From contig JAHIFQ010000004.1 of assembly GCA_018900835.1 (NCBI GenBank), forward strand, positions 1 through 64,000: 64,000 bases of DNA. Reading direction: 5' to 3'. Each line of letters opens with the position of its first letter. The stretch's first letter is position 1. Positions 6,170 to 51,378 of this stretch are shown one piece after another. This stretch comes from Patescibacteria group bacterium. GTDB lineage: Bacteria > Patescibacteriota > Minisyncoccia > Minisyncoccales > PEYH01. A program made the translations under genes and the position numbers. The notes below the pieces were generated by a model that saw only the letters and a program-made list of their open reading frames with translations, searched no databases and was not told the DNA's origin.

Positions 6170-8854
6170 ATGGCAGAAACAAACCACGAAAAACTAGATA
6201 TCCCGCCTGAAGCAATCCGGACAATGAAAAAGGACTTAGCTGGCATCACTCGAGGAGAGTGGGATTTGGCTTTGGCTGAAGCGGAAATTCAAGAGTTGCT
6301 TCAACAGTTCCGCGAAAGACAAAAACAAGCAGAGGCGCAGAAGCTCATGGAACAACAAAATCTAAAACCACAAAAAGAAGAGCCAAAAGAAAAAAAGGAA
6401 GAAAAAAAGCCCGAAGAACCAGTGGAGGAAGCGCCCGAAGAACCAAAAAAGAAAGAAATAAGCGCTTCAGACCAAGAAAAAATAATTGCGGAGGAAATCA
6501 AGAAACGGGCAAAGAAAAGGGAAGAAATGGTGAATCAGAGCATGGAAAAAGAGGACTTTAAAAAAGCGCTTGAACAAGAAGAAAAAGCAGATGCCCAGAC
6601 AAAAGAAAGAACAGAGAAAGAGCTTCGTGAAAAATTGGAGCGATTGCAGGAGGCGCTTAAAGAAATCCCAAATGAAAAAATCCCTCTTGAAGAAAACCAA
6701 AGTTATTACCTCAAAGACCAAGCAAAAATAGAAAAGGACTTGGAGCCAATTTTAGAAAGCGAAAAGAAAATAGAGGAGAATATAAAATTTATTGAGGGCA
6801 TTGAAAAAACTGCGATTACTCCACGCCAAAAGAAAAAAGCGGAGCAGGAAAGACAATTAGCAGAACAAGAGAGAGAAACCATAGAAAAACAAAGGTGGGA
6901 CTATGAGCAGAAAAAATTTCAAATTGAGAAACAATTAAAAGAAATAGAATTCGGCTTCCATCAACTCGCCCAAAAAGAAGCCAAGATTAAACAGGAAATT
7001 GGCTTGGTCAATCAAGAAATAGAAAAAATTGAGAAAGCCAAAGAAAAAAGAGAAATAGAAATAAAAATCAGCCAATTAGCAAAAGAAAAGGTAGAGCATG
7101 ATGTTATTAAGGCAAAGATTTTATCGCAAAGAAAAGCAATAGAAGAAAAATTGGCAGAAGTGATAATAAGAGAACAAAAGCTGGAAAAAGAATTAAGTTA
7201 TATCCAAGAAGAAGAGCGATTAGCGAGCGAAACGGAAAAACAAAGAGTAGAGCAGGAGAGATGGAAATTGGAAAAAATGCGTTCAGGCATTGAAAAAGAA
7301 AGATGGATAGTAGAAGAAGACAAGACCAAAATCCGCCTTGAAGAAAACCGAATCAATGTAAGATATCAGAAAATATTAGAACAGGAAAATCAGTACAGAA
7401 AAAGAATCCAGGATATTAATCAGATATTAGGAATTATTGTTCCAAAAGAAGTTCTTGACCCGAGAGATAGGCCAGAACCGACTATCAAGCCACAGGAAGA
7501 GCAAATAGAAAAAGATGACTATCTAGAAGAAAAACCAGCATCCGAAAGATTAAAAGAAGATAAATCGCCGACCCCCATAAAAACAGATGAAGACCAAAAG
7601 CAAGCTCCGATAGAAGAGCCAAGCGAGAAAAAGACAGCCCCAGGGCAATTAACAGAGCAGGAACAAGCCAAGGAAGAGTTAGCAAAAATTGAGGCAAAAC
7701 AAAGAAGGGAAGAATTGCTTAAAAAATTAAGGACCGTAAGGGAAAGAGAAACCCAAAACAAGGAAAAACAACTGCTCCAAAGAATCAGGCAGGGAGCGAC
7801 TATCCCTGAACCGCCTACCGAACAACAAGGCCCGACTCCACAAATCTCATCACAACACCCGCCTTTGATGAATCTCCCTTCTGAAAGAGATGTTAAAAAA
7901 TCCAAATTAAGATTATTGCTTATTGGAATTGCTGTTGTTGTTATAATCAGCATTATCGGTTTTTGGTATTGGTATGCCAAGGTGAGAGAAAAACCAGAAG
8001 CGCCTATGCCGCCACAGATAGAAACGCCTACTCCGCCAGCAACCACAACACCTTCTAATGGAACAACAACCGAGCCACTTGTCCCATCCTCAAGCTTAAT
8101 TCCTGTAAACACAACATTTCCTTTGAAAGTATCTGAACAAACAGATGTAGCATTGCTTGTCTCGCAGATTCTTAAAAATACAATTATTGAAAAAAATGTA
8201 TTTTCAAGGATTTTAATAGAAAATACTGTTGAGAAAAAATACTTATCTGTCTCTGAAATGCTCACTGCGCTCCAACTTAATCCTCCTTCCACTCTCTACG
8301 ACCAGATAGAATCAGACGCCACATTTTTTGTTTTTCCAACTGAAAATTATTCGGTCTTTGGGTTTGTTGCCAAGAGCGCCACAGATATAAGCGATAATGA
8401 AATTATGGCGACAATGAAATCATGGGAACCGACTTTAATCACAGACAGCAGGCAGTTTGGGAGTTCTCTTGCTAAAACAAATATGGTGCCTATTGCAAAC
8501 TTTCAGGAAAACAATTATAAGAATAATGTCCTGCGGTATTTGACATTAAGCCCGGCTCCGGACTGCTTCGGCGCCTGCTATGCAGCGATAGACAGCCATC
8601 TTGTCTTTAGTACTTGCTGTAATGTAATTACTAAAATTATAGACGACAAATCTTTATCCCCAACAAACACAATCAATTCGGATAAACCGCCTTCTGTCTC
8701 TGCCCCTAAAATTATCCAAAATATTGTTTCTTGGGGTTACCATACGCCCAAAAACGCCCGCTCAATAGATACAATCGTCATCCATTCTTCATATGACGCG
8801 ATAGGAAGTGATCCATACAGTACATCGGGGGTTATCGCAGAATACAAAACATAA
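6170..8854 (+). CDS. Giant coiled-coil (K/E-rich) protein with one TM helix and the start of a C-terminal amidase_2 domain (N-terminal frame of a frameshifted gene)
   Basis: About 580 aa of E/K-rich heptad-like sequence, a TM segment LLLIGIAVVVIISIIGFWYWYA, an extracellular region, then IDTIVIHSSYD (the IVIH start of the amidase_2/PGRP fold). The ORF stops at 8852-8854 inside the domain. Confidence 0.6.
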   Translation: MAETNHEKLDIPPEAIRTMKKDLAGITRGEWDLALAEAEIQELLQQFRERQKQAEAQKLMEQQNLKPQKEEPKEKKEEKKPEEPVEEAPEEPKKKEISASDQEKIIAEEIKKRAKKREEMVNQSMEKEDFKKALEQEEKADAQTKERTEKELREKLERLQEALKEIPNEKIPLEENQSYYLKDQAKIEKDLEPILESEKKIEENIKFIEGIEKTAITPRQKKKAEQERQLAEQERETIEKQRWDYEQKKFQIEKQLKEIEFGFHQLAQKEAKIKQEIGLVNQEIEKIEKAKEKREIEIKISQLAKEKVEHDVIKAKILSQRKAIEEKLAEVIIREQKLEKELSYIQEEERLASETEKQRVEQERWKLEKMRSGIEKERWIVEEDKTKIRLEENRINVRYQKILEQENQYRKRIQDINQILGIIVPKEVLDPRDRPEPTIKPQEEQIEKDDYLEEKPASERLKEDKSPTPIKTDEDQKQAPIEEPSEKKTAPGQLTEQEQAKEELAKIEAKQRREELLKKLRTVRERETQNKEKQLLQRIRQGATIPEPPTEQQGPTPQISSQHPPLMNLPSERDVKKSKLRLLLIGIAVVVIISIIGFWYWYAKVREKPEAPMPPQIETPTPPATTTPSNGTTTEPLVPSSSLIPVNTTFPLKVSEQTDVALLVSQILKNTIIEKNVFSRILIENTVEKKYLSVSEMLTALQLNPPSTLYDQIESDATFFVFPTENYSVFGFVAKSATDISDNEIMATMKSWEPTLITDSRQFGSSLAKTNMVPIANFQENNYKNNVLRYLTLSPAPDCFGACYAAIDSHLVFSTCCNVITKIIDDKSLSPTNTINSDKPPSVSAPKIIQNIVSWGYHTPKNARSIDTIVIHSSYDAIGSDPYSTSGVIAEYKT

Positions 8855-9176
8855 CGGGGTAGCTCCGCACTATTTAATTGCCCGTAATGGGGACATATAC
8901 CAACTAGTCACCGATAAGGCCGTCGCATATCATGCAGGAAACAGTAAAATGCCTGATGGGAGAACTAACGTAAATAATTTTTCTATCGGCGTTGAGTTGA
9001 TATACGCTAAAAATGATACGCCAACGGAAGTCCAATATGATTCCCTGTCTAAATTGGTTGATTATTTGGTTGATAAATACAAGATTCCATTAAAAAATAT
9101 CGTCGGGCACGAAGACATATCTCCTGCCAATAGACAAGACGATCCTGCTAATTTTGATTGGAACAAAATTTCATAA
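8808..9176 (+). CDS. N-acetylmuramoyl-L-alanine amidase (amidase_2/PGRP) domain, C-terminal part (frame-shifted continuation of 6170..8854)
   Basis: GVAPHYLIARNGDIYQLV...AYHAG...SIGVEL...IVGHEDI...DPANFDW are the conserved amidase_2 blocks. This reading frame opens at 8805, overlapping the upstream ORF by 47 nt. Confidence 0.6.
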   Translation: MIHTVHRGLSQNTKHNGVAPHYLIARNGDIYQLVTDKAVAYHAGNSKMPDGRTNVNNFSIGVELIYAKNDTPTEVQYDSLSKLVDYLVDKYKIPLKNIVGHEDISPANRQDDPANFDWNKIS

Positions 9177-9215: not shown

Positions 9216-9593
9216 ATGAAAAAAGAGTTTATAGAAAAGCAAAGGGTGCGGTTAGAAGAAAACAAAAAAGCTCTCCAAAAGGAGCTAAGTCTTTTTGCTG
9301 AAAAAGATGAAAAAATAAAAGGCAACTGGAAGTCCTCTTTTCCTGATTTTGACAGTTCTGAAACCGGAGGAGGAAAACTGGAAATAGCCCAAGATGAAGT
9401 GGAGGAATATTTGAACCGTCTTCCAGTGGAGCATTCTATGGAAATCAAACTTCAAAACATAGATTTAGCGTTGGCAAAAGTAAAGAAAGGCACTTACGCA
9501 AAATGCAATAAATGCGGAAAAAGAATTTCCATGGACCGGCTTGAGGCCTGCCCAGAAGCGCAATTTTGCGTGGACTGCAAAGGCAAGGCGTAA
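9216..9593 (+). CDS. DksA/TraR-family C4 zinc-finger protein
   Basis: C-terminal CNKCGKRISMDRLEACPEAQFCVDC (CxxC-17-CxxC) after a coiled-coil. Confidence 0.7.
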   Translation: MKKEFIEKQRVRLEENKKALQKELSLFAEKDEKIKGNWKSSFPDFDSSETGGGKLEIAQDEVEEYLNRLPVEHSMEIKLQNIDLALAKVKKGTYAKCNKCGKRISMDRLEACPEAQFCVDCKGKA

Positions 9594-9609
9594 AAACAAA
9601 TATATCTCC

Positions 9610-9645
9610 CAAACACAAAAACCCAGCGATGGGTTTTTGTGTTTG
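9610..9645 (+). repeat. Palindromic hairpin element copy 1 (16-bp perfect stem CAAACACAAAAACCCA/TGGGTTTTTGTGTTTG, loop GCGA)
   Basis: Member of a 5-copy family with the core AAAACCC-N4-5-GGGTTTT (copies at 9610, 10448, 11305, 12124 and 13225). It acts as a terminator-like cassette boundary. Confidence 0.6.
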
Positions 9646-9671
9646 AAAAAAATAATATACAATGATTATAT

Positions 9672-10346
9672 ATGTCTACTAATATAAGAAATTATATATT
9701 CGTTGACGAATCAGGAGACCCAGGCAAGATTCATAAGATTGATTCCTCTGGGAATAAAATTTATACTGGCGCGAGTTTATTTTATATTCTCTCCGCAGTT
9801 TGTTTGAATTCAAGAGAATTATTTTTGCTAGAAAATAAGATTTTAGAAATTAAAAATAAACATGGATTTAGGAACGAAATAAAAAGCACCATTATTCCTT
9901 TAATTCTATACAAAGACCTCCTTAAAATGATTAACAAATTAGATATAAAAATATTTTATAGATTAATAGATAAAAGGAAATATAAGGGAACATTTGCCGT
10001 TAAGGGTGATAAAAGGCTACACAATGTCTTTGATGAATATAATCTTGCAAAATTAGTCTGTTTTGCTGTTAAGAAGTGTGATATGACCGGAGTAGAAGTA
10101 GTTATAGATAGAACCGACAGAAGGCTACTGGATGGTAACTTCGAGAATTTCAATGATTATCTCAAGGGCAAAATAAATACTAAAACAATCGAAAGGATAA
10201 AACATGTCACTCATGTTAATTCGGAATATGTAAATGCAATGCAGTTATCTGATTTAGTTAGTGGTGCAATAAAAGATAGTTTTACCAAAAAGAATCCATA
10301 TCTTAAAAAGATAATGGAAAAAAGGTTGTTGAAAAAGATATATTAG
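9672..10346 (+). CDS. DUF3800-family protein
   Basis: The N-terminal YIFVDESGDPG matches the DUF3800 y-i-DESG signature. The protein is about 220 aa. Confidence 0.55.
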   Translation: MSTNIRNYIFVDESGDPGKIHKIDSSGNKIYTGASLFYILSAVCLNSRELFLLENKILEIKNKHGFRNEIKSTIIPLILYKDLLKMINKLDIKIFYRLIDKRKYKGTFAVKGDKRLHNVFDEYNLAKLVCFAVKKCDMTGVEVVIDRTDRRLLDGNFENFNDYLKGKINTKTIERIKHVTHVNSEYVNAMQLSDLVSGAIKDSFTKKNPYLKKIMEKRLLKKIY

Positions 10347-10447
10347 GTTAAATAAAAAAAGAAGCGGGCGCCCAGACCTGGGACACGCTTCAATATGATA
10401 ATAGCAATCTCAAAATAATTGTCAAGTCCCCACGCAAAATACCACAC

Positions 10448-10468
10448 AAAAACCCCTGCTGGGTTTTT
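10448..10468 (+). repeat. Palindromic hairpin element copy 2 (AAAAACCC-CTGCT-GGGTTTTT)
   Basis: Same family. It sits 50 nt upstream of comM 5' fragment 1. Confidence 0.55.
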
Positions 10469-10490
10469 AAATTTGGAGAATTAAGATAAT

Positions 10491-10685
10491 ATGAAACAAG
10501 ATAAATCAATAAACAACAATATGTCTTCCAAAATATTCTCCGGAGCAGTTGTCGGTCTGGAAACCCAAATCATTGAGGTTGAATCAGATATTTCTTATGG
10601 ATTAAGGAGTTTTGAGATTGTGGGCTTGCCCGACAAAGCGGTAGAGGAGTCGACTGTCATCACAAAACATTCAAAGTGTTCTTGA
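10491..10685 (+). pseudogene. comM/yifB 5'-end fragment, copy 1 (displaced N-terminal 44 codons + unrelated tail)
   Basis: From the internal MSSKIFSGAVVGLETQIIEVESDISYGLRSFEIVGLPDKAVEES it is about 92% nt-identical to comM 13296-13427, then diverges. It carries an extra MKQDKSINNN leader. Confidence 0.75.
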
Positions 10686-10821
10686 AAACAAAACTCCTCC
10701 CGGTAGAAGAAATAATCGGGCATAGGGTTGAAGTAGAATTGATTGAAAAATAAACTTAACGCAACTTTGACAATATGCGTCTTTTTTGTCAAAATGGAAC
10801 AAATATTAATAAACTGTATAT

Positions 10822-11259
10822 ATGCCAAAAATACCCACTGGCAAATTAGCATCAATGCACATCTCTTATTCCTTTTTTCTTTATATGTTAGGGACGCAGA
10901 TTATTTTTCCCTCCTGGCCATATTTATTAAAGCTCATATTTACCATATTTATTATTCTATTATCAGTGTCTGGCTCTTTATGGTATTTCAAAAAGAGAGG
11001 ATATGTCATCGAAGAAAAACAAAAATTTCTTCGCTTGTCGGCAATTTGGTTTTTCTTGATAAATTTTAGTGTTCCAGTAATGTATACTATTTTGATAGTT
11101 TGGATAATGAGGACAGGCGCAAGTGCCACTGACCTTGCCAAAACATTTGCAATTTTCTTAGTGAGTTCAGGAATAACCACCCTTTTATTTTATTGGTTTA
11201 CTAAAAAACTCATGCCCAGAGTAGAAAGCGGTAAGAGCTTATTAAATTGGAAAAAATAA
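10822..11259 (+). CDS. 4-TM membrane protein, hypothetical (cargo between comM fragments)
   Basis: Four hydrophobic helices and no recognised motifs. Confidence 0.35.
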   Translation: MPKIPTGKLASMHISYSFFLYMLGTQIIFPSWPYLLKLIFTIFIILLSVSGSLWYFKKRGYVIEEKQKFLRLSAIWFFLINFSVPVMYTILIVWIMRTGASATDLAKTFAIFLVSSGITTLLFYWFTKKLMPRVESGKSLLNWKK

Positions 11260-11304
11260 AAAAAGGCATAGTGGAAAATAGCGCTAATTCCACTTTCTCT
11301 CTCT

Positions 11305-11328
11305 TGTCAACAACCAAAAACCCATCAC
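11305..11328 (+). repeat. Palindromic hairpin element copy 3 (CAAAAACCCA-TCAC-TGGGTTTTTG)
   Basis: Same family. Its 5' flank TTCTCTCTC..CAACAACC is shared with copy 5. Confidence 0.55.
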
Positions 11329-11383
11329 TGGGTTTTTGTGTTTAAGAAAGGCGGTTTCTCTTTTTTTTGTTATAGCGACTTTT

Positions 11384-11668
11384 TTAGCTAACAAATTCTA
11401 TTTTAATCCTTTTGTTAAATACTGAGGCAATTCTCTGAAGATTATCAGTAGTAAAATTCTGCCGCCCTGCTTCCATTCTAGCAATAACGCTTTGAGTTGT
11501 GCCAATCTTTTTAGCTAATCCCTGTTGTGATAAGTGTTTCTTCGCTCTCAATTGGACAATCTTATAAGCAACTTCAAGACGATGACATTCTTGTTTATAT
11601 CCCTTGTTGAAATTCTTATCTTTCATCTTGGCCCTAAAATGTTTTTCGTAATTAGTTAATTTAGTCAT
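11384..11668 (-). CDS. XRE-family HTH antitoxin (HigA-like)
   Basis: HTH motif LSQQGLAKKIGTTQSVIARMEAG. It lies downstream of, and overlaps by 8 nt, the RelE/HigB-like toxin gene. Confidence 0.6.
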   Translation of the reverse strand: MTKLTNYEKHFRAKMKDKNFNKGYKQECHRLEVAYKIVQLRAKKHLSQQGLAKKIGTTQSVIARMEAGRQNFTTDNLQRIASVFNKRIKIEFVS

Positions 11669-12029
11669 ATTTATTATTATTTATTAAAAAATCTCTATAA
11701 TTTTTTTCGGCTTTAATAATTTCTTTTTTTGGTGTTTTGCTTGTTTTCTTTAAAAACGCGTGTAAAAGAATAATTTTTTTGCTAACAAATGTAAAATAAA
11801 ATATTCTATGATGATTTTTGGAAAAACCAACTCTCAACTCTCTAATTTTCCCTTTAATGTGTTTTGAATACGGTTCATCCAAATATCCCTTCTTATCTTT
11901 TAATAATTCTAAATATGTAAAAACTTTTACCTGTTCTTTTTTAGACAGTTTATCAATGTATTCTTTCACGACTTCCTTTCCTTTAGAATCAATATAGTAA
12001 TAGATCCTATGGTCCCCTAAATATGTCAT
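11661..12029 (-). CDS. RelE/ParE-superfamily toxin, HigB/Gp49-like
   Basis: Blocks EPYSKHIKGKIRELR and RIFYF...IILLHAF.KK..KTP match the Gp49/HigB family. The toxin-first order matches HigBA. Confidence 0.6.
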   Translation of the reverse strand: MTYLGDHRIYYYIDSKGKEVVKEYIDKLSKKEQVKVFTYLELLKDKKGYLDEPYSKHIKGKIRELRVGFSKNHHRIFYFTFVSKKIILLHAFLKKTSKTPKKEIIKAEKNYRDFLINNNKYD

Positions 12030-12123
12030 ATTCTCTTTATAGCATATATGCTATATGCGTCAAGTATCTGCTGTGGATAACTCAACTAATATTTAAGGTA
12101 TAGTATTATCCTTATTATTTTCC

Positions 12124-12143
12124 CAAAACCCATTTCTGGGTTT
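12124..12143 (+). repeat. Palindromic hairpin element copy 4 (AAAACCCA-TTTC-TGGGTTTT)
   Basis: Same family. It sits 50 nt upstream of comM 5' fragment 2. Confidence 0.55.
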
Positions 12144-12167
12144 TTAAATTTGGAGAATTAAGATAAT

Positions 12168-12383
12168 ATGAAACAAGATAAATCAATAAACAACAATATG
12201 TCTTCCAAAATATTCTCCGGAGCTGTTGTCGGTTTGGAAACCCAAATCATTGAGGTTGAATCAGATATTTCTTATGGATTAAGGAGTTTTGAGATTGTGG
12301 GCTTGCCCGACAAAGCGGTAGAGGAATCAACTGTCGTCACAAAACATTCAAAGTGTTCTCTAAAACACAACTTCTTCCTATAG
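12168..12383 (+). pseudogene. comM/yifB 5'-end fragment, copy 2
   Basis: Same as copy 1, about 95% identical to it across roughly 320 bp including the 5' UTR. It diverges from comM after GCGGTAGAGGAATC. Confidence 0.75.
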
Positions 12384-12599
12384 CGGAAATAATCGGGCAT
12401 AAGGATGAAGCAAAATTGATTGAAAAATAGAATTGACACCACTTTTATAGGACTGAAGTAAAATTAATTGGAAAATAGACCTGACACCATTTTTCTATTT
12501 CATCATTTTCTCATCACCGTTTTTTTCATTTGATGACTGGCAGAAACAAACATGATATACTATAAAAAATTAGAGGAATAAAATTAATAAAATATATTT

Positions 12600-13100
12600 A
12601 TGAAAAATAAAACATTATTGATCGCGATAGTCGCCATTGTAGTATTGGCAATTTTAATTTTTTTAATACTTCTTATTAAGAATAAAACAGCTCCCGTAAT
12701 GTTCCCGACGGACGAGAAAGCTTGCGACGAAATACAGGGACAGAAATTGAAAGATTATTGTTATTTGGGTGCCGCTCAAGCCAAGCAAGACATGTCTATT
12801 TGTGAGATGATACAGGAGCAGTGGGTAAAAAATGACTGTTATTTAAATGTAGCTCAAGCCAAGCAAGATATCTCAATTTGTGAGAATATACAGGATCAAG
12901 AGAGGAAAGATGACTGTTATTTAAATGTAGCTCAAGTCAAGGAAGACATATCTCTTTGTGAGGGAATGCATGGACAGAACAAAAAAGATCTTTGTTATTT
13001 GCGCATTGCTCGAGCCAAGCAAGATATATCTATTTGTGAGATGATACAGGAGCAGAAGATAAAAGAAAATCTTTGTTATAGATACATAAATCCCCAATAA
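12600..13100 (+). CDS. Signal-anchored protein with four ~31-aa Cys-containing repeats (DCYLNVAQAKQDISICE..Q..K)
   Basis: An N-terminal hydrophobic anchor is followed by 4 tandem repeats, each with a conserved CYL...A.AKQD.S.CE pattern. Confidence 0.5.
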   Translation: MKNKTLLIAIVAIVVLAILIFLILLIKNKTAPVMFPTDEKACDEIQGQKLKDYCYLGAAQAKQDMSICEMIQEQWVKNDCYLNVAQAKQDISICENIQDQERKDDCYLNVAQVKEDISLCEGMHGQNKKDLCYLRIARAKQDISICEMIQEQKIKENLCYRYINPQ

Positions 13101-13224
13101 ATTCTGTTAAAATCCGCAATCGCAATTGGTATAAAAAAGTAGGCACACAGACATTGGACGCGCTTCAATATAATAGTGTTGAAAACGACATCAGGTCTAT
13201 TTTTCTCTCTCAAACAACAACCCT

Positions 13225-13245
13225 AAAACCCATCACTGGGTTTTT
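13225..13245 (+). repeat. Palindromic hairpin element copy 5 (AAAACCCA-TCAC-TGGGTTTT)
   Basis: Same family. It sits 50 nt upstream of intact comM. Confidence 0.55.
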
Positions 13246-13295
13246 GTGTTTGAAGAAAGATACATAATAGAATATTATGAATTATAATAAATATT

Positions 13296-14843
13296 ATGTC
13301 TTCCAAAATATTCTCCGGAGCTGTTGTCGGTCTGGAAACTCAAATTATTGAAGTGGAATCAGATATCTCCTATGGATTAAGGAGTTTTGAGATTGTGGGC
13401 TTGCCCGACAAAGCGGTAGAGGAATCAAAAGAAAGAATAAAATCAGCCATAAAGTCATGCGGTCTTCGTCCGCCTTTTTTAAAGCCAGAAAGAATCTTGA
13501 TTAACTTAGCGCCTGCTGATTTGAAAAAAGAAGGTTCGCTTTATGATTTACCCATTGCCATTGCTTATCTTGTAAAAAGCAAACAAATCAATGCAAATTG
13601 TGAAGGAAAGATGTTTGCCGGAGAATTATCATTAGATGGAACTCTGCGTCCCATAAAGGGAGCTCTTGCTTTTGCTCTTAAAGCCAACGAAGCAGATTTT
13701 CCTGAAATAATCCTGCCAATTGAAAATATGAAAGAAGCAACTCTGTGCCAAATCAATACCAATAAAAATAATTTAAGGATAATCGGAGTTGATTCTTTGC
13801 AAGCTGCGATAAATTATCTAGAAGGAAAAATAATCATTGAGCCAGCGATACTGGATATGAACGAGGTTGTTAAAAATAATGATTACAGGATTGGATTGGA
13901 TTGGGTAAAAGGACAAAACCATGCTAAAAGAGCTTTAATAATCGCTGCTGCCGGGGGCCACAATCTCTTACTTGTCGGGCCACCGGGCGGAGGAAAAAGC
14001 TTATTGGCAAAGTCCTTGCCTTCAATCTTGCCAGACTTATCAGCGGAAGAAATGCTTGAACTCACCAAAATCTACAGCATTTCCGGACTGCTTTCAAAAG
14101 AAGAACCGATTGTAACAAAGAGGCCTTTTCGCGCAGCCCACCACACTGCTTCCAAGGTTTCAATAATAGGGGGTGGCACTCCGATTCGGCCTGGCGAGAT
14201 TACTCTTGCCCACAGAGGAATTTTATTCTTAGACGAATTCCCGGAATTCAATAAAGATGTGCTGGAAGCGCTTAGGCAACCATTGGAAGACGGGACTATA
14301 ACTGTAATGCGGGCAGTTCAAAGAATCACATTTCCTTGCCATTTCAGTTTGATTGCTGCTGCCAATCCATGCCCTTGCGGACACTTAAACGACCCGAACA
14401 ATCCGTGCTCATGCACTCCCTCGCAAATAGCAAAATACAAACGCAAACTCTCGGGTCCGATAATTGACAGAATTGACATGGTGGTTGAATTGCCCCAAGT
14501 AGAGTTTGAAAAACTGACAGCTCCTGACAGCAATCAGGAAACAATTGAAGCAAGGGGAGAAATAGAAAAAGCAAGAAAGATTCAGAACGAGCGATTTCAA
14601 GAGAGTAAGATGATAACTAACAGCGAAATGGAGGTGCCGGAAATAAAAAAGCACTGCCAGATAAATTCATCATCAAACAATATCTTGAGGAGCTATGTTA
14701 ACTCTGGCAAACTCTCTGCCCGCGGTTATCATCGGGTATTAAAAATAGCCCGCACTATTGCGGACTTAGCAGGAACAGATGAGATTTTGCTTGAGAATCT
14801 ACACGAGGCATTAATGTATCGCCTCGCTGATATTTCTCACTAA
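13296..14843 (+). CDS. comM: Mg-chelatase-like AAA+ ATPase ComM/YifB
   Basis: 515 aa. Lon-like N-terminal domain, Walker A GPPGGGKS and the C-terminal ChlI-like region. Confidence 0.9.
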   Translation: MSSKIFSGAVVGLETQIIEVESDISYGLRSFEIVGLPDKAVEESKERIKSAIKSCGLRPPFLKPERILINLAPADLKKEGSLYDLPIAIAYLVKSKQINANCEGKMFAGELSLDGTLRPIKGALAFALKANEADFPEIILPIENMKEATLCQINTNKNNLRIIGVDSLQAAINYLEGKIIIEPAILDMNEVVKNNDYRIGLDWVKGQNHAKRALIIAAAGGHNLLLVGPPGGGKSLLAKSLPSILPDLSAEEMLELTKIYSISGLLSKEEPIVTKRPFRAAHHTASKVSIIGGGTPIRPGEITLAHRGILFLDEFPEFNKDVLEALRQPLEDGTITVMRAVQRITFPCHFSLIAAANPCPCGHLNDPNNPCSCTPSQIAKYKRKLSGPIIDRIDMVVELPQVEFEKLTAPDSNQETIEARGEIEKARKIQNERFQESKMITNSEMEVPEIKKHCQINSSSNNILRSYVNSGKLSARGYHRVLKIARTIADLAGTDEILLENLHEALMYRLADISH

Positions 14844-22258: not shown

Positions 22259-25200
22259 ATGAAACTTTCCTTTTTAGATGGATTATTAGGAAAAAAGACA
22301 GAATATGAGGCTGGTGCAGAACCGCAAGCAATGAACTTGCTTGATTTTATAGCTCCTCCAGCGATTACAATCGGGTCTGACTATTTCCAGATAGGCGAAA
22401 AATTCGCTAAATCATACTTTATTTTCTCTTACCCGAGATATTTGAGCACTGGGTGGTTGGCGCCAATTATAAACTTGGACATTCCATTGGACATTTCTAT
22501 TTTCTTTCATCCGATTGATACTGGGCTTATTCTGAAAAAATTAAGTAAAAAGGTTACTGAAGTTCAGTCGGAAATAATGGAAAAGGAAGAAAAGGGTTTA
22601 ATAAGGGACCCTATCCTTGAGACCGCTTACAAAGACATTGAGGTATTAAGAGACCGGCTCCAAACAGCGCAGGAAAGAATGTTCAGGGTTGGAATGTATC
22701 TGACCATATATGCTGATGACAAAAAGGAGTTGGAAAAAATAGAGGGCACTGTTCGCTCAATCCTTGAATCAAAATTGGTTTATGTAAAACCAGCCCTCTA
22801 CCAACAGGATAAGGCAATGATTTCAGCGTATCCCGCTGGTATAGACCGACTTCAAGTGCATACATCTATCAATACTAGTCCTCTCTCAACAATTTTCCCA
22901 TTTGTGTCTTTTGATTTGAGTTCAAACGAAGGAATCCTTTACGGGATAAACCAGCACAACAGCTCACTAGTGTTGTTTGACAGGTTTAGCTTGGAAAATG
23001 CAAACTCAGTCGTTTTCGGTAAGAGTGGCGGAGGCAAAAGCATTTTATCATCTGAACCAGTTCTGATAAGCGAGAACGGACAAACCAAGATTGAGAACAT
23101 CGGCAAAGTTGTAGAAAGAGCAATAGAAAAACACGGGTGCCATAAAATTGACGAGGAATTAGAGGGAGCAATAAATCCATATATCAAAGTTTGGAGTTTT
23201 GATAAAAATCTTAAAGGCAGTTGGTCAACGGTGACTGTTGCTGCAAGAAAAAAAGCTCCTGAAATATTTTATAAATTCAGAACCCGAAGCGGAAGAGAGG
23301 TGAGCACAACAGGAGACCACAATATGTTAATCCTTAAAAATGGACAAATAACCGCAGAAAAAAGCTCTGAAATTAATGAAGGAGAATTTATCCCGTTGTC
23401 CAGAAGGATTTCTGAAAACTCCTCTCCAGATAAATTCATAAACTTGCTTGAATTACTAAAAAATTCCCACTTGGTTTATGTTTTCAACGCTGAAAAAATC
23501 ATCAAAAAATATTATCATCAGATAAAAAATCTTGATAGTGGTTCCTCTTTAAAAAAATATCTCTATAAATACAAAGATGGTAGAAGGATTCCTATTAAAT
23601 ACTTCCTTGAAATTATTGATTCTTTAAAAATTTCAGAAGCCGAGCTTAATGATTTAAAAATTGTTTCCAAAAATGGAGATATTGCCAATGGCTTAAATAT
23701 AATCTTGCCTATTTCAAATAATCTGTTAAAAATAATCGGATTTATAGCATCAGAAGGAACAGTTGGCGAAAACTTTATAAATATCAGTAACCAAGACGAA
23801 GAATTCATCAAAGAGTGTATGGACTCTTTCAAGAATATTGGGGTTCCGTGCTATCAAGCAGACAAAGCTATTATTTGCGCAAGCCGTATTTTCACAGAAA
23901 TCATCAAGGCATTAGGCGGAAAACAGAAGTCCGGAGATAAGACGGTTTTGCCATTTATATTTAATGCTGAAAAAGAAAAAATTGCGCAATTCCTTTCCGC
24001 TTATTTTGAGGGAGACGGCGGGGTAGAACATGATAAAATATGCGCCACAACCAAATCAAAACAGCTATCTTCTGAAATTTCTTATCTGCTTTACTATTTT
24101 GGAATCATTGCCAGAATCCAAAAGAAAATTAAATGCGCCACCAATACAGAAGAAAAAAGAAAACAAACATATTGGCAAATTTCTGTATCAGGGAAGAATG
24201 ATTTAGAAAAGTTTGCCCAAGAAATTGGATTCATTTCTCACAGGAAAATAAACAAACTAAATAGCATTATTAAAGAAAATGGGAATACAAATGTTGATAT
24301 AATCCCGGGCTTAGCTCCGTTGTTTGAAGAAATCTACAACACCTGTCCTCCGCTCCTTATGGGCATGCAAACGGTCTCTGCTCTAAAGCGCGGGATATAT
24401 AATCCTTCACCAGATAATTTAAAAAACATAATAGAAAAAATAGAAAAACGGATTACTTATTTTAAAGATAGAGGAGAACAAATAAAAGTCCTGTCAGGAT
24501 TGCCAGAAATTCAGGAATTAATTGAATACGGAGAAAACATAGACAAAGAAACAGAAGACAATCTTGATTATAATTATAGTCCACAAGTCATAATGACCGA
24601 GCAAGCAAAGCAAACCGACCGACTTATTTGGCAGGAATACCAAGAAATTTTAAGAAATGGTATTCCAAAAATTGAAAATATTATCAAACGCCTAAAAAAT
24701 CTAGCAAACTCTGATTTATTTTTTGACGAAATCGTAAATATTGAAAAAATAGCCAACAAAGATGAACAATATGTTTATGATTTAACAGTGGACAACGAAG
24801 TATTTCTCTGCGGAAACGGTGGAATGTTTGTTCACAATTCGTACGCAATTAAGTTGGAGATTTTAAGGTCTTTGATGCTTGGAATTGAATCAATTATTAT
24901 TGACCCTGAAAACGAATATAGATTCCTTTCTGACGCAGTGGGCGGGAAGTTCTATAATATTTCTTTGGCATCAGAAAGCCATATAAACCCTTTTGACCTG
25001 CCAGAACCAGTTGATGATGAAGAGCCAAAAGATGTTTTGCGCTCCAACATTATCAACTTGGTTGGGCTTATGAGAATAATGCTTGGCGGGCTCACGCCTG
25101 AAGAGGACTCTGTTATTGACCAAGCTATTAACGAAACATATGCTGCCCGCGACATCACCGCAGACACAGACCCTGGTCTATGGAAAGAAAGGGTGCCATT

Positions 25201-25858
25201 GATGTCTGATTTAGAATCAGTGCTGGAAACAATGGAAGGCGCTGAATCGCTGGTTAAACGATTAAGAAAATTCACCAAAGGCGTTTACGCGGGATTCTTT
25301 AATTATCCAACAAATGTAGTAATGGATAATGCTTTGGTTGTTTTTGGCATTAAAAATCTTGAAACAGAATTAAGGCCATTGGCAATGTTTATTGTTATGC
25401 GCTACATTTGGAACGCCATTAAAGGTGATTTAAAAAAGAGAATCTTGGTGATTGACGAAGCGTGGTGGCTGATGCAAACAGAAGACAGCGCTTCTTTCCT
25501 TTATGGAATTGTAAAAAGAGGAAGAAAATATTGGCTTGGCACAACCACAATCACACAGGATGTGAACGATTTTATGAAATCAGACTATGGCCAGCCCATA
25601 ATCACAAATTCATCTTTGCAACTCTTGATGAAACAATCTCCAGCCACTATTCAGGTTGTAAAAGAGACCTTCAATCTTACTGACCAAGAAAAATACCTGC
25701 TTTTGGAAGCGCCTATTGGCGAAGGAATATTTTTTGCCGGAGAAAAACATGTTTCTATCAGGATTGTTGCTTCCTACACAGAGGACCAAATCATAACAAC
25801 CTCGCCTGAAGAAATGTCTAAAATAAAAAAGCTTAAAAAGATAAAAGAAAATGCCTGA
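22259..25858 (+). CDS. VirB4/TrbE/TraC-family conjugative ATPase containing a ~597-aa intein in the P-loop
   Basis: The exteins carry Walker A GKSGGGKS (aa 254-261), Walker B RILVIDEAWW and a VirB4 C-terminal region. The intein starts right after the P-loop and ends FVHN|S. Confidence 0.8.
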   Translation: MKLSFLDGLLGKKTEYEAGAEPQAMNLLDFIAPPAITIGSDYFQIGEKFAKSYFIFSYPRYLSTGWLAPIINLDIPLDISIFFHPIDTGLILKKLSKKVTEVQSEIMEKEEKGLIRDPILETAYKDIEVLRDRLQTAQERMFRVGMYLTIYADDKKELEKIEGTVRSILESKLVYVKPALYQQDKAMISAYPAGIDRLQVHTSINTSPLSTIFPFVSFDLSSNEGILYGINQHNSSLVLFDRFSLENANSVVFGKSGGGKSILSSEPVLISENGQTKIENIGKVVERAIEKHGCHKIDEELEGAINPYIKVWSFDKNLKGSWSTVTVAARKKAPEIFYKFRTRSGREVSTTGDHNMLILKNGQITAEKSSEINEGEFIPLSRRISENSSPDKFINLLELLKNSHLVYVFNAEKIIKKYYHQIKNLDSGSSLKKYLYKYKDGRRIPIKYFLEIIDSLKISEAELNDLKIVSKNGDIANGLNIILPISNNLLKIIGFIASEGTVGENFINISNQDEEFIKECMDSFKNIGVPCYQADKAIICASRIFTEIIKALGGKQKSGDKTVLPFIFNAEKEKIAQFLSAYFEGDGGVEHDKICATTKSKQLSSEISYLLYYFGIIARIQKKIKCATNTEEKRKQTYWQISVSGKNDLEKFAQEIGFISHRKINKLNSIIKENGNTNVDIIPGLAPLFEEIYNTCPPLLMGMQTVSALKRGIYNPSPDNLKNIIEKIEKRITYFKDRGEQIKVLSGLPEIQELIEYGENIDKETEDNLDYNYSPQVIMTEQAKQTDRLIWQEYQEILRNGIPKIENIIKRLKNLANSDLFFDEIVNIEKIANKDEQYVYDLTVDNEVFLCGNGGMFVHNSYAIKLEILRSLMLGIESIIIDPENEYRFLSDAVGGKFYNISLASESHINPFDLPEPVDDEEPKDVLRSNIINLVGLMRIMLGGLTPEEDSVIDQAINETYAARDITADTDPGLWKERVPLMSDLESVLETMEGAESLVKRLRKFTKGVYAGFFNYPTNVVMDNALVVFGIKNLETELRPLAMFIVMRYIWNAIKGDLKKRILVIDEAWWLMQTEDSASFLYGIVKRGRKYWLGTTTITQDVNDFMKSDYGQPIITNSSLQLLMKQSPATIQVVKETFNLTDQEKYLLLEAPIGEGIFFAGEKHVSIRIVASYTEDQIITTSPEEMSKIKKLKKIKENA
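23048..24838 (+). mobile_element. Intein with LAGLIDADG (dodecapeptide) homing-endonuclease domain inside VirB4
   Basis: Block A lies after GKSGGGKSIL (S-SEPVLISENG). The LAGLIDADG blocks are KIIGFIASEGTVGE and IAQFLSAYFEGDGGVE. The C-terminal splice junction is VHN followed by the +1 Ser. The rejoined extein reads GKSGGGKSIL-SYAIKLEIL. Confidence 0.7.
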
Positions 25859-35275: not shown

Positions 35276-35911
35276 TTGACAACTGTATGCTGCAGACATA
35301 CAATTGTATGTAGTGAGCAAACATTTGATATGTCTCTAAATTTTACTAAAAATCAAACATTAATTCTTGGAATCCTTTTTAATCATCCAGAAAAATCCTA
35401 TTATTTAAGAGAAATAGGCAGGTTGGTAGGGAAAGAACCGGGTGTTTTTCAAAAAGATATTAACAAATTGGTTGAGAGCGGCATTTTGACCAGCGAATAT
35501 CGCGCAAAAAGCCGCTTTTTTGCGTTAAATAAGCTGCATCCCCTATATAAAGAGTACAAAAGCATTTTTTTCAAAACAATTGGCGCGGAAGGACAACTGA
35601 AATTAATTTTGAAAAATATTGAAAATATTAAAGTAGCTTTTATCTATGGCTCATTTGCTACCGGAAAAGAAGATGCTTTTTCAGATATTGATTTGATGAT
35701 AATCGGAAATCCCGATGAAGATGTTTTAATCAGAAAAATTTCTTTACTGGAAAGAAAAATAGACAGAGAAATTAATTATAATATTTTTTCACCAACAGAT
35801 ATTAGGAATAATTTATTAAATAATGAAATTTTCCTAAAAGAAATAATGGAAAGACCCAAGGCATTCATTATCGGAGACCAAAATGAACTGGAAGAAATTA
35901 TTGGAAAATAA
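35276..35911 (+). CDS. wHTH-fused minimal nucleotidyltransferase (MNT-type antitoxin)
   Basis: wHTH (LREIGRLVGKEPGVFQKDINKLVESGIL) plus the NTase motif FIYGSFATGKEDAFSDIDLMIIG (GS...D.D). Confidence 0.6.
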   Translation: MTTVCCRHTIVCSEQTFDMSLNFTKNQTLILGILFNHPEKSYYLREIGRLVGKEPGVFQKDINKLVESGILTSEYRAKSRFFALNKLHPLYKEYKSIFFKTIGAEGQLKLILKNIENIKVAFIYGSFATGKEDAFSDIDLMIIGNPDEDVLIRKISLLERKIDREINYNIFSPTDIRNNLLNNEIFLKEIMERPKAFIIGDQNELEEIIGK

Positions 35912-36335
35912 AAGCTTACAGAAAAAAAGAATCAGCTTCCAAGAAGTGGGAGGGGTTTTAGTAAAGGCGGAGAAATGTCTTAGGGCGGCAGAGTTGCTAT
36001 TGGCAAAAGATGTAGATGAGTCGGTTTTTAAAGAAGCTTATGACTCTATGATTTTAGCTGGGCGGGCGTTAATGTTTTCTTTAGGGTTAAAGCCGCGTAC
36101 CATTGGATCGCACACCATAACCATTGATTTCTGCTCCGATTATTTAGGAAATGATTTTAAGACATTGACCGAAAAGTTTAGAAAAATGAAGAAGAAAAGA
36201 AACTATTTGATTTATGGCATCGGGTTAATCGTTTCCAAGACTGAAGCAGAGAATGCGCTCAAAACCGCGAAAGAATTTGTTGATAAAATCTCAAAATTTA
36301 TTCAAGCAAAAAATCCTCAGAAAAAGTTAGTTTAA
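35883..36335 (+). CDS. HEPN-domain protein (putative toxin partner of MNT)
   Basis: An all-alpha ~150-aa protein overlapping the MNT gene by 29 nt, with an R-x4-6-H-like motif (KKKRNYLIYG). The HEPN/MNT pairing is an established TA architecture. Confidence 0.5.
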   Translation: MNWKKLLENKSLQKKRISFQEVGGVLVKAEKCLRAAELLLAKDVDESVFKEAYDSMILAGRALMFSLGLKPRTIGSHTITIDFCSDYLGNDFKTLTEKFRKMKKKRNYLIYGIGLIVSKTEAENALKTAKEFVDKISKFIQAKNPQKKLV

Positions 36336-50470: not shown

Positions 50471-50812
50471 TTGAAAAGAGACGAGGAATGGGGTAATATT
50501 AAAGCAGATATGGAAAAAATACCCCAATTTTTGCAGAAATATTTTTGGGATGTGGAATTTTTAACCCTGGACATAAAAAAGCACTCACAATTTGTTATTG
50601 AGAGGATTTTAGAATATGGAGACAAAAAATCAATAAAATGGATGGAAGATAATTTTCCTTCAGAAGAAATTAAAAATACCCTTTCTATTTCCAAAAACCT
50701 TTCGCAAAAATCAGCCAATTTTTGGCAGCTTATTTTTGATTTAGATAAGAATAAAATTTTATGCTTGAACAAATCATTTCAAAAAAAACACAAAGCAATC
50801 TGGAGATATTAA
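50471..50812 (+). CDS. Hypothetical protein overlapping the AbiEii-like gene start; candidate cognate antitoxin
   Basis: 113 aa with no HTH recognised. The assignment rests on the 52-nt overlap with the downstream NTase gene. Confidence 0.25.
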   Translation: MKRDEEWGNIKADMEKIPQFLQKYFWDVEFLTLDIKKHSQFVIERILEYGDKKSIKWMEDNFPSEEIKNTLSISKNLSQKSANFWQLIFDLDKNKILCLNKSFQKKHKAIWRY

Positions 50813-51378
50813 AAAAATCAGGCCTGATTGCAAATTTTTATCTTGTTGGCGGCACAGGGTTGGCTTTATATTTAAAGCATCGCATTTCTGTTGATTTGGA
50901 TTTTTTCAGCAAAAAAGAGTTCAACAGCCAATCAATGATTCAGAAGATTAAAAAGTTAGGTAAATTTTCAATCGCAAAAGAATCAGAAAATACTTTGACA
51001 GGAGTTTTTAATGACACAAAAATCGCTTTTTTGACATACGATTATCCGCTTCTTTTTCCGTTGAAAAAAATTGGCAATATTAATGTTGCTGACATAAAAG
51101 ATATCGCTTGTATGAAAATTTCTGCGATTTCTTCCCGTGGAAGCAAGAAGGACTTTATTGATTTATACTTTATTTGCCAGCAGGGCATTTCATTAAAACA
51201 GGCATTAGTATTGTTTGAAAAGAAATATAAGAGCATTGATTATAATATGGTGCATATTTTGAAAAGTTTGGTCTTTTTTGATGATGCTCACAATGACCCT
51301 ATGCCAAAAATGTTAGTTCCCGTTATGTGGGAACAGGTTAAGAGATTTTTTCAAGAAAAAGTAAAAACGAGTCAATGA
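50761..51378 (+). CDS. AbiEii/AbiGii-family nucleotidyltransferase (type IV TA toxin-like)
   Basis: NFYLVGGTGLALYLKHRISVDLDFF matches the GG.AL....HR.S.D.D signature of the AbiEii NTase family. Confidence 0.55.
   Translation: MLEQIISKKTQSNLEILKKSGLIANFYLVGGTGLALYLKHRISVDLDFFSKKEFNSQSMIQKIKKLGKFSIAKESENTLTGVFNDTKIAFLTYDYPLLFPLKKIGNINVADIKDIACMKISAISSRGSKKDFIDLYFICQQGISLKQALVLFEKKYKSIDYNMVHILKSLVFFDDAHNDPMPKMLVPVMWEQVKRFFQEKVKTSQ

Follow-up and report, generated by a model that had tools for sequence, protein, structure and literature searches.

Minimal mobile elements of Neisseria are variable genes that lie between conserved flanking genes and are moved by transformation and homologous recombination, and the composite staphylococcal cassette chromosome (SCC) islands at rlmH (orfX) in staphylococci are tandem elements at one gene end, some of them recombinase-less, bounded by target repeats; SCC has CcrAB/CcrC serine recombinases, a 3' gene end as target and repeats of 15–18 bp. 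The dusA islands insert into the 5' part of a conserved housekeeping gene, always at one position, and supply a new 5' end and promoter, keeping the gene intact while the original 5' end stays as a remnant, and they carry their own tyrosine integrase by the junction, with 21-bp semi-conserved att repeats (Farrugia et al. 2015, PMC4482086). In the tycheposon arrays of Prochlorococcus genomic islands, each new insertion at the single target site moves the older units further in (Hackl et al., bioRxiv 2020.12.28.424599). Here we describe a slot between a dksA/traR-type zinc-finger gene and comM in the first 64,000 nucleotides of contig JAHIFQ010000004.1 (assembly GCA_018900835.1) from a Patescibacteria group bacterium, a stretch called the window below, and compare it with the same locus in related genomes. 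The scaffold architecture of this slot and its standing as an insertion hotspot are, in our judgement, very likely; the best explanation, which we hold at a little better than even, is that the hotspot is rebuilt when repeated scaffold modules recombine with one another. The literature searched had no earlier account of a comM hotspot in Patescibacteria.

The repeat at this locus is far longer than the palindromes within it. A sequence-only reading of the window had described five copies of a hairpin separating small gene units and missed the length of the repeat: a module of ~300 nt, made up of hairpin, leader, comM codons 1–44 and a tail of ~100 nt, occurs twice (10447–10746 and 12124–12423; 93% identity), and the start of the intact comM (from 13222) is a third, partial copy. 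The order within the scaffold is hairpin, promoter/leader and then, in three of five copies, comM codons 1–44. The first comM 5' copy (10521–10652, forward strand, inside a mini-open reading frame (mini-ORF) at 10491–10685) matches the beginning of the intact gene at 93% identity, and all nine differences are synonymous; the second (12198–12329, forward strand, inside mini-ORF 12168–12383) has seven differences, again all synonymous. Both truncated copies break at the identical base, past ...GTAGAGGA(A/G)TC(A/G), the end of codon 44, a position that in the intact gene (13296–14843, forward strand; ChlI, Mg_chelatase and Mg_chelatase_C; codons 1–44 at 13296–13427) lies after 13427. Beyond it the truncated copies run ACTGTC..ACAAAACATTCAAAGTGTTCTTGAAAAC into a foreign tail (copy 1, 10653–10755; copy 2, 12330 to ~12430; both forward strand), whereas the intact gene runs AAAGAAAGAATAAAATC. 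The hairpin and a TTGGTTTGAAGAAAATAGGATACAAT-like element form a predicted terminator–promoter module, which stands ahead of comM in its native form, of its fragments and of the DUF3800 cargo genes alike. The shared flanks named in the earlier reading, TTTCTCTCTC..AACAACC before hairpin copies 3 and 5 and a GTGTTTGAAGAAAG-like sequence after copies 1, 3 and 5, were recovered as described.

Comparison with relatives showed how variable this slot is. In L004, whose comM is 85% identical, the site is empty and consists of dksA, one hairpin and comM; comM is also undisrupted in L005–L007, and L004–L007 were counted as empty-site relatives. The occupied relatives L002, L003, L073 and L079/L102 have two to five hairpins, one to three comM 5' fragments and one to four other cargo units in the dksA–comM slot, their cargo comprising HigBA, two kinds of NYN/LabA-like genes, DUF3800, and lipoproteins or membrane proteins. 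The copy number of the hairpin follows that of the cargo units, from one in the empty site to two to five in occupied relatives. Different cargo adjoins the same junction in L002, L003, L073, L079/L102, L083 (three small genes), L086 (TIR/ThsB-like genes), L093 (small unknown genes), L095 (SufS/SufE and a two-component system) and L097 (a beta-propeller protein). A query with the 54-residue mini-ORF product (ComM 1–44 followed by STVxTKHSxxS) returned 38 proteins in ~33 clusters, nearly all of exactly 54 residues. The cargo is defence- or toxin–antitoxin-like (DUF3800, HigBA, NYN, TIR) or encodes small membrane proteins, and PADLOC ties several of its products to defence candidates. The direct repeat that flanks the cargo of L093 and L095 is 132–135 nt long, consists of comM codons 1–44 only (98–99% identity) and has no hairpin, and in L083 the direct repeat is 189 nt long with a different hairpin.

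The cargo and its scaffold differ in how similar they are between genomes. Flanking core genes are 73–82% identical between the genomes compared. Between L003 and L079, which share a unit of 2.1 kb at 89.6% identity, the cargo alone (membrane gene, NYN gene and a 3' flank including the M(-) motif) is 95–100% identical, against 72–92% for the comM fragment and tail, ~40% for the leader and 77.4% for the core genes; the hairpin loops differ between the two. The right edge of this high-identity block lies ~20 nt upstream of the hairpin, and the left edge, which is less sharp, ~170–185 nt past the comM–tail junction. In addition, the HigBA, NYN1 plus membrane gene, NYN2 and DUF3800 units occupy different positions from array to array. 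Because the cargo is so much more similar than the core, in a block that ends just before the hairpin, we conclude with good confidence that cargo moves horizontally, probably into and out of a slower-evolving resident scaffold. The reverse reading, in which nothing is mobile, the dksA–comM intergenic region was duplicated locally in tandem and then diverged vertically, and the hairpins are ordinary terminators, seems to us hardly tenable. It would account for the terminator anatomy of the hairpins, for the comM 5' copies being most alike within one genome in the nearest-neighbour table (93–98.5% identical within a genome, 71% on average between genomes) and for an L003-type array that is stable over ~24 contigs. 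It does not fit cargo genes that are mutually unrelated and differ among close relatives, an empty site nested among occupied genomes, the same units in different orders or a tail foreign to comM, and the contrast between cargo and core identity already largely refutes it.

The hairpins themselves are readily delimited. AAAACCC-N3-6-GGGTTTT has exactly five matches in the window (9618, 10449, 11317, 12125 and 13225, all on the forward strand; 0.00 expected in shuffled sequence), and the looser AAACCC-N3-7-GGGTTT finds the same five sites and none further (0.02 expected), so that the five conserved hairpins first reported stand, within a span of 3.6 kb out of 64 kb. Copy 1 has the perfect 16-bp stem ascribed to it (-24.1 kcal/mol; core from 9618, long stem 9610–9645), and copies 2–5 have stems of 8–13 bp (-9 to -14 kcal/mol); the core of copy 3 begins at 11317 rather than at 11305 as first given. 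The arms are a perfect A5C3/G3T5 palindrome around a spacer of 4–6 nt that varies in sequence, and all copies have the same orientation, judged by their flanks. A Xer/pdif site is 28 bp long, with distinct XerC and XerD arms on either side of a 6-bp spacer, and its modules lie between sites of opposite orientation. Across genomes the stem is invariant and the loop variable, an AGCRRT loop marking the first copy of each genome, the dksA terminator. The anatomy is that of a terminator, with an A-tract, a stem and a T-tract, and GGGTTTTT tails after the stems: hairpins 1, 2, 3 and 5 sit 24–125 nt past stop codons, hairpin 3 also 48 nt past the convergent higA, and hairpin 4 has no co-directional gene before it. 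By sequence, these are stable stem-loops with a U-tract after a gene, as expected of intrinsic (rho-independent) terminators, and a terminator scan of the window picked up hairpins 1, 2 and 5. Since the remaining terminator-like sites of the window have unrelated stems, the hairpin is not the generic terminator of this genome; over the window and ~80 kb of closely related loci it is confined to the dksA–comM interval, in agreement with the earlier suggestion that it is more than that. We therefore regard the hairpins as predicted terminators of a duplicated terminator–promoter–comM-5' scaffold and not as attC/REP-like sites, their conservation being explained by co-duplication with the comM promoter and 5' end. 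In particular, we somewhat favour the view that each of the five hairpins is the terminator of one scaffold copy, the first being the native dksA terminator and the others belonging one each to the four cargo units. As the direct repeats of distant lineages are free of it, the hairpin appears to be an optional, lineage-specific part of the scaffold and not the conserved recombination feature.

The notion of a cassette array holds as far as a variable-locus array is concerned, with a copy number that follows the cargo, but not for the hairpin as a free-standing recombination site. If the hairpin, with its 7–16-bp arms and 4–6-nt spacer, were itself the site of a host tyrosine recombinase, Xer/pdif- or attC-like, cargo would pass by hairpin-to-hairpin exchange, a mechanism that we consider very improbable. 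Its arm–spacer–arm geometry does resemble simple tyrosine-recombinase sites; the DUF3800 and HigBA units are bounded by hairpins on both sides with no comM–tail junction on their left, the L003/L079 exchange block stops ~20 nt ahead of a hairpin, foreign DNA in L079 breaks one hairpin within its loop, and the crossover in two closed contigs (see below) lies somewhere 3' of the hairpin loop. On the other hand, hotspot, junction and duplication all exist without any hairpin in the repeat (L093, L095 and L086), the junction between hairpin 3 and higA lies 14 nt past the hairpin and in microhomology, no hairpin marks the left boundary of the exchange block, and the lone hairpin of the empty site is simply the dksA terminator. 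Nor does the hairpin fit the attC, REP or MITE models named in the sequence-only reading. No IntI-type or Phage_integrase domain was found in the ORFs of the window or in the arrays of relatives, and the attC pattern (RYYYAAC ... GTTRRRY) has one match per strand in the window, none of them across a hairpin. As for repetitive extragenic palindromes (REP/BIME), no dispersed copies were seen, all five copies of the window lying in 3.6 kb and those of relatives in the dksA–comM interval, and the window has no Y1 (IS200/IS605-like) transposase. Unlike a miniature inverted-repeat transposable element (MITE), the hairpin is 20–44 nt long, lacks a target-site duplication and has its copies confined to one locus. 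Integron arrays do resemble the comM locus in their ordered, promoter-proximal and mostly single-gene cassettes, toxin–antitoxin pairs included, with palindromes in between, but here there is no IntI, attI or attC consensus, the cassettes have their own promoters, and the palindrome, a short terminator, is missing from the repeat of related lineages. Known RNA families were also absent from this region of the window, where the search gave only a sub-threshold chance match to a microRNA.

We propose a model whereby the ancestral state was dksA, one terminator hairpin, a promoter and comM, and whereby accessory cargo units came to be stacked between dksA and comM in the occupied genomes, each framed by a scaffold copy. 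Where a unit is preceded by a comM copy, this copy would always be cut past codon 44 and run into the conserved foreign tail, and the next scaffold copy downstream would restore an intact, expressed comM. The hairpins, just ahead of the promoter for the next gene, would insulate adjacent units without being recombination sites. The likeliest present-day mechanism would be RecA-type recombination between scaffold repeats: units would be replaced or inserted after DNA uptake with the comM 5' copy, the tail and the hairpin–promoter as homology arms, units would also loop out and re-insert between direct repeats, and microhomology deletions would erode the array, the codon-44 junction having arisen once or rarely and then spread. 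What favours recombination between scaffold repeats is the lack of a recombinase together with the host-like repeats and a microhomology scar; that the mechanism is of the homologous-recombination type is, in our estimate, an even chance.

The evidence on the first of these points comes from the window and from the relatives. Pfam searches found no recombinase or transposase domain in the ~50 ORFs that cover the window, which is core chromosome (dnaA, dnaN, ruvABC, a penicillin-binding protein gene and a type IV secretion system (T4SS)-like cluster), and no cognate recombinase stands at the junction in ten contexts, so that the cognate recombinase suggested by the sequence-only reading did not come to light. 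The only exception among the arrays is a large serine recombinase inside the syntenic interval of L086/L098. As a cognate integrase it was rejected: the sequence common to its other loci is a tRNA 3' fragment and an element terminus, not the tail, and neither tail nor comM fragments were found at these loci, whereas in L091 and L092 the recombinase module abuts a complete tRNA gene. The tRNA 3' fragment and terminus indicate that the L086 enzyme belongs to a tRNA-targeting element probably nested in the island. The family (L086:1593–2903, reverse strand, and L087–L092) shows 74–91% identity and has thousands of members across Patescibacteria lineages; it forms a module with a small membrane-protein gene, and the end of this module abuts a tRNA gene or a tRNA 3' fragment (…GGTTCGARTCCAAGCCCCGCAGCCA / ACACATGCTAAGTCAGGTGACTGAG), and is apparently a widespread tRNA-targeting integrative element of these bacteria. 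When viral contigs were searched for a phage- or plasmid-like free form, neither the tail core nor the exact hairpin nor the mini-ORF had a match.

Host-like repeats and a scar are seen in the arrays themselves. The differences among comM fragments comprise 128 synonymous and 29 nonsynonymous changes, where 23% synonymous would be expected by chance, so the fragments resemble comM 5' ends that are in use or under continual conversion. The junction between hairpin 3 and higA, 14 nt beyond the hairpin and within an AAGAAAG microhomology, reads as a deletion scar relative to the fuller arrangement in L003 and L079. Furthermore, in two contigs from different metagenomes, L106 (2163 nt) and L109 (2072 nt), one cargo unit of 2,036 nt forms a closed sequence whose ends overlap by 127 and 36 nt, and the switch of repeat type falls inside a 165-nt identical block (hairpin 3' half, promoter and comM codons 1–19), not at the comM–tail junction. 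These contigs fit loop-out or tandem duplication by homologous recombination, and we give them limited weight.

Several observations weigh against this model. The junction is invariant even in lineages whose ComM is only ~58% identical, and the first ~37 nt of the tail are ~85–90% conserved; this is what a site-specific system would give, and homologous recombination leaves the origin of the junction unexplained. The downstream hairpin copies form a distinct ATCACT-like loop class common to several genomes, which suggests that the scaffold itself may have travelled. Nor is turnover rapid, since ~24 contigs from many samples have an unchanged L003-type array. For L106 and L109, cycles of the assembly graph through the 165-nt block are an alternative to real circles or duplications, and a recombinase acting in trans may be encoded elsewhere in the genomes, the search having covered the window and the loci of relatives.

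The invariant junction and the conserved tail make a site-specific enzyme a serious rival, one that we regard as possible though clearly the less probable. The units would then be tandem, mostly decayed or non-autonomous integrative elements placed by a site-specific recombinase encoded elsewhere or on a helper element, with an attB across comM codon 44 and an attP consisting of the hairpin–promoter–comM 1–44 arm and the tail; with every integration the old comM 5' end would stay behind as attL and attB would be regenerated, and arrays would grow by accretion, as in the dusA islands and tycheposons. This reading would explain a junction at the identical base in all copies and lineages, a tail core conserved far above the neighbouring non-coding DNA and the single loop class of the downstream hairpins across genomes, and the excess of synonymous changes is expected if each comM fragment was once a working 5' end. 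There are also precedents, both for 5'-end replacement (PMC4482086) and for accretion with partial att remnants (bioRxiv 2020.12.28.424599). Against it, neither the junction in ten contexts nor the 64-kb window yielded a cognate recombinase, the only recombinase of the island belongs to a tRNA-targeting element, and the viral contig scans were empty; moreover, the conservation of the tail is coding-like with a period of three, unlike the pattern of a binding site, the recent exchange block leaves out the junction and the comM copies, and the closed-unit contigs cross over away from the junction.

The locus can be set beside the described systems. Like the dusA islands with their DAI integrases, the comM locus shows 5'-end replacement with a remnant: two comM 5' remnants precede an intact comM, the break is past codon 44, and L004 is empty. 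It differs in that no integrase adjoins the junction in the ten contexts, the repeat is 132–230 nt long and host-like, and units of 0.7–4 kb are stacked, several at a time. As in tycheposon arrays, tandem units are split by partial copies of the target (the tRNA there, the comM 5' end here), with recombinase-less cargo remnants in a streamlined host genome; the window has three comM 5' copies and five scaffold copies, and comparable arrays occur in L002, L003 and L079/L102. Tycheposons, however, have a tyrosine recombinase, tRNA 3' ends as targets and integrase-bearing copies that are easy to find, whereas no tyrosine recombinase and no tRNA target were found in the comM contexts, the target being the 5' end of a protein-coding gene. 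The locus has in common with the SCC islands that tandem elements, some of them without a recombinase, gather at one gene end between repeats of the target; neither CcrAB/CcrC nor targeting of a 3' end nor 15–18-bp repeats were seen. With the minimal mobile elements of Neisseria the locus shares alternative small gene sets in one slot between the same conserved flanks without mobility genes, an exchange that flanking homology would best explain, and a host lineage with competence machinery (comM itself). To our knowledge those elements have no duplicated target fragment, no conserved junction or tail and no stacking by repeated terminator–promoter modules. By analogy, the best fit would be a recombinase-less slot in the sense of the Neisseria minimal mobile elements, with an unusual duplicated and self-restoring comM 5' scaffold.

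The tail poses a question of its own. As a diverged continuation of comM it was rejected, since its global alignment to codons 45–85 is no better than that of shuffled sequences (z -1.7 to +0.1), and a tRNA or tmRNA origin was rejected on negative ARAGORN and Rfam results. Across the first ~18 codons of the tail, compared in 14 DNA copies, variation has a period of 3 in the frame that is -1 to comM, with pairwise differences of 256/148/424 by codon position, a signature seen in the window (10653–10755, where the frame reads VDCHHKTFKVFLKTKLLPVEEIIGHRVEVELIEK*, and 12330–12430) and at the junctions of L002, L003, L073, L079, L083, L086, L093, L095 and L097. The peptide in this frame is ..DC[HR][HD]KTFKVFLKTxLLP.., with Leu codons TTG, CTG, CTA and TTA. 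In the 33 mini-ORF clusters, the frame-0 residues past an invariant Lys vary as H/L, S/L, K/R, C/Y/F and S/F, all of them third-position changes in the -1 frame; ahead of a conserved ACAAAAC run, frame 0 varies conservatively, and the run itself, where the frame-0 constraint seems to yield to the -1-frame constraint, is perfectly conserved. The -1 frame has no start codon and has an in-frame stop 12 codons upstream. RNAalifold lent no support to a conserved RNA structure or frameshift stimulator in the tail (-1.7 kcal/mol, no covariation), no in-frame comM–tail fusion was found among the atypical mini-ORF clusters, and searches for a longer protein with the tail peptide gave no word-sharing protein among 5.8 billion sequences and two tiny ORFs and one spurious repeat protein among 1.84 billion representatives. 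The 42-residue ORF P0160 has the tail peptide in frame after another N-terminus, and one copy in L086 begins with ATG. From this codon pattern, the tail could be a recoding event (a -1 shift) or a small ORF with an unconventional start, or it may be under selection only elsewhere. A bolder and, we think, unlikely extension would make the locus a recombinase-free or host-recombinase-driven, comM-anchored cassette system in Patescibacteria, in which the scaffold is a portable landing pad for the trade of small defence and accessory genes among species and its first gene is a micro-protein of ComM N-terminus and tail read via a frame change at ACA-AAA-C. If this were true, the chimeric micro-protein could have its own function, for example in modulating the ComM helicase and hence the transformation-driven gain and loss of cassettes.

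The order of genes given by the sequence-only reading (dksA-like, DUF3800, comM fragment and membrane protein, HigBA in reverse, comM fragment and Cys-repeat protein, comM) is correct, and the layout of the window is as follows, on the forward strand except for the HigBA pair. The dksA/traR-type gene (9216–9593; Pfam zf-dskA_traR) is the conserved left flank of the hotspot and is syntenic in L002, L003, L004, L073, L083, L093, L095 and L102. Hairpin 1, the putative native dksA terminator (9606–9649, core 9618–9637; 16-bp stem, loop AGCGAT), is followed by a promoter-like TTGTGTTTGAAAAAAATAATATACAAT reaching ~9668, and directly behind it stands cargo 1, the DUF3800 gene (9672–10346; Pfam DUF3800, PADLOC candidate PDC-M04A); L002 has a DUF3800 gene behind the same hairpin and promoter, with a 5' end homologous to that of the window. 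A conserved 3' cargo flank with a D6 motif and a degenerate M(-) motif (10358–10446; D6 at 10358–10400, 79% identical to 13133–13175) leads to hairpin 2 with leader type b (TTTAAATTTGGAGAATTAAGATAAT ATGAAACAAGAT...; 10447–10520, hairpin 10449–10467), the start of the 300-nt repeat. Beyond comM 5' copy 1 and its tail lies cargo 2, a predicted membrane protein of 145 residues without a family match (10822–11259), followed at 11272–11350 by an M-like motif (11272–11296), a CT-rich tract, hairpin 3 (11317–11336) and 14 nt of leader type a, which is fused to the higA 3' flank in the AAGAAAG microhomology (11344–11350) of the presumed deletion scar. Cargo 3 (11384–12029, reverse strand) consists of a HigA-like helix–turn–helix antitoxin (11384–11668; HTH_3) and a Gp49/HigB-like toxin (11661–12029; Gp49), and is collinear with L003 (82% over 1054 nt) and L079 (83%). 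After hairpin 4 with leader type b (12124–12197, hairpin 12125–12144) and comM 5' copy 2, tail copy 2 and two M(+) motifs (AAAATAGACCTGACACCATTTT; 12421–12445 and 12469–12493) fill 12330–12493. Cargo 4 (12600–13100) encodes a signal/transmembrane-anchored protein of 166 residues with four 26-residue Cys-containing repeats; these are four tandem 78-nt repeats at 12722–13064 (…C.E.IQ.Q..K.DCYL..AQAKQDISIC…; 69–80% identity), and no family match was found for the protein in Pfam or PADLOC. Its 3' flank (13133–13224) contains D6, an M(-) motif (13182–13203) that is an inverted copy of 12472–12493, and a CT-rich/AACAAC tract, and hairpin 5 with leader type a (13225–13295, hairpin 13225–13244) precedes the intact comM with a promoter-like site at 13250–13278.

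Some further features of these arrays and of their surroundings deserve mention. Cargo is bracketed by inverted repeats in L083 (10328–10381 and 11607–11660; 54 nt, 94%) and in the window (the 22-nt M(+)/M(-) pair 12472–12493 and 13182–13203; 82%), and an M(-) copy accompanies the recently exchanged cargo in L003/L079. The hairpin-to-comM leader of L079/L102 contains a repeated perfect palindrome, GGAAACCTGGTTTCC, up to two per leader (L079 1180–1210, 2210–2235, 2262–2280 and 4245–4316), which the leaders of the window lack and which is perhaps operator-like. Just upstream of the hotspot, an N-acetylmuramoyl-L-alanine amidase domain (8650–9176) is split between the C-terminal extension of an 894-residue coiled-coil/membrane protein (6170–8854) and an overlapping ORF (8808–9176); in L002, L003 and L004 the large protein has ~830–850 residues and is followed directly by dksA without the amidase, which points to a second lineage-specific insertion or a frameshifted gene. 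Further along the window, in the T4SS-like cluster at 20.7–30.3 kb (PrgI-like, TraC-like and T4SS pilin genes), a 1199-residue TraG/VirD4-like coupling protein (22259–25858) has an intein with a LAGLIDADG homing-endonuclease domain according to precomputed Pfam hits. Further small genes of defence or toxin–antitoxin type, a nucleotidyltransferase/HEPN pair by dnaN (35276–36335) and an AbiEii-family toxin gene (50761–51378), are both without the hairpin motif.

In bacteria of the Candidate Phyla Radiation, genomes are tiny, recognisable mobile elements are few, and little is understood of the routes by which defence and accessory genes are gained. The comM locus is a concrete and widely distributed slot for such genes, with ~33 junction clusters and at least 10 genomic contexts, in which the disrupted competence gene is always rebuilt and small cargo (toxin–antitoxin pairs, DUF3800, NYN, TIR, SufS/SufE and a two-component system) passes from one species to another. 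A separate, minor puzzle is the coding signature of the tail in the -1 frame. If homologous recombination or a host enzyme, and not an integrase of the element, drives the exchange, the locus would represent a minimal route of gene flow in streamlined genomes, and the comM slot would offer genetic work in these organisms a natural landing pad. Since ComM is a helicase that drives recombination in natural transformation, the system may feed back on its own mobility.

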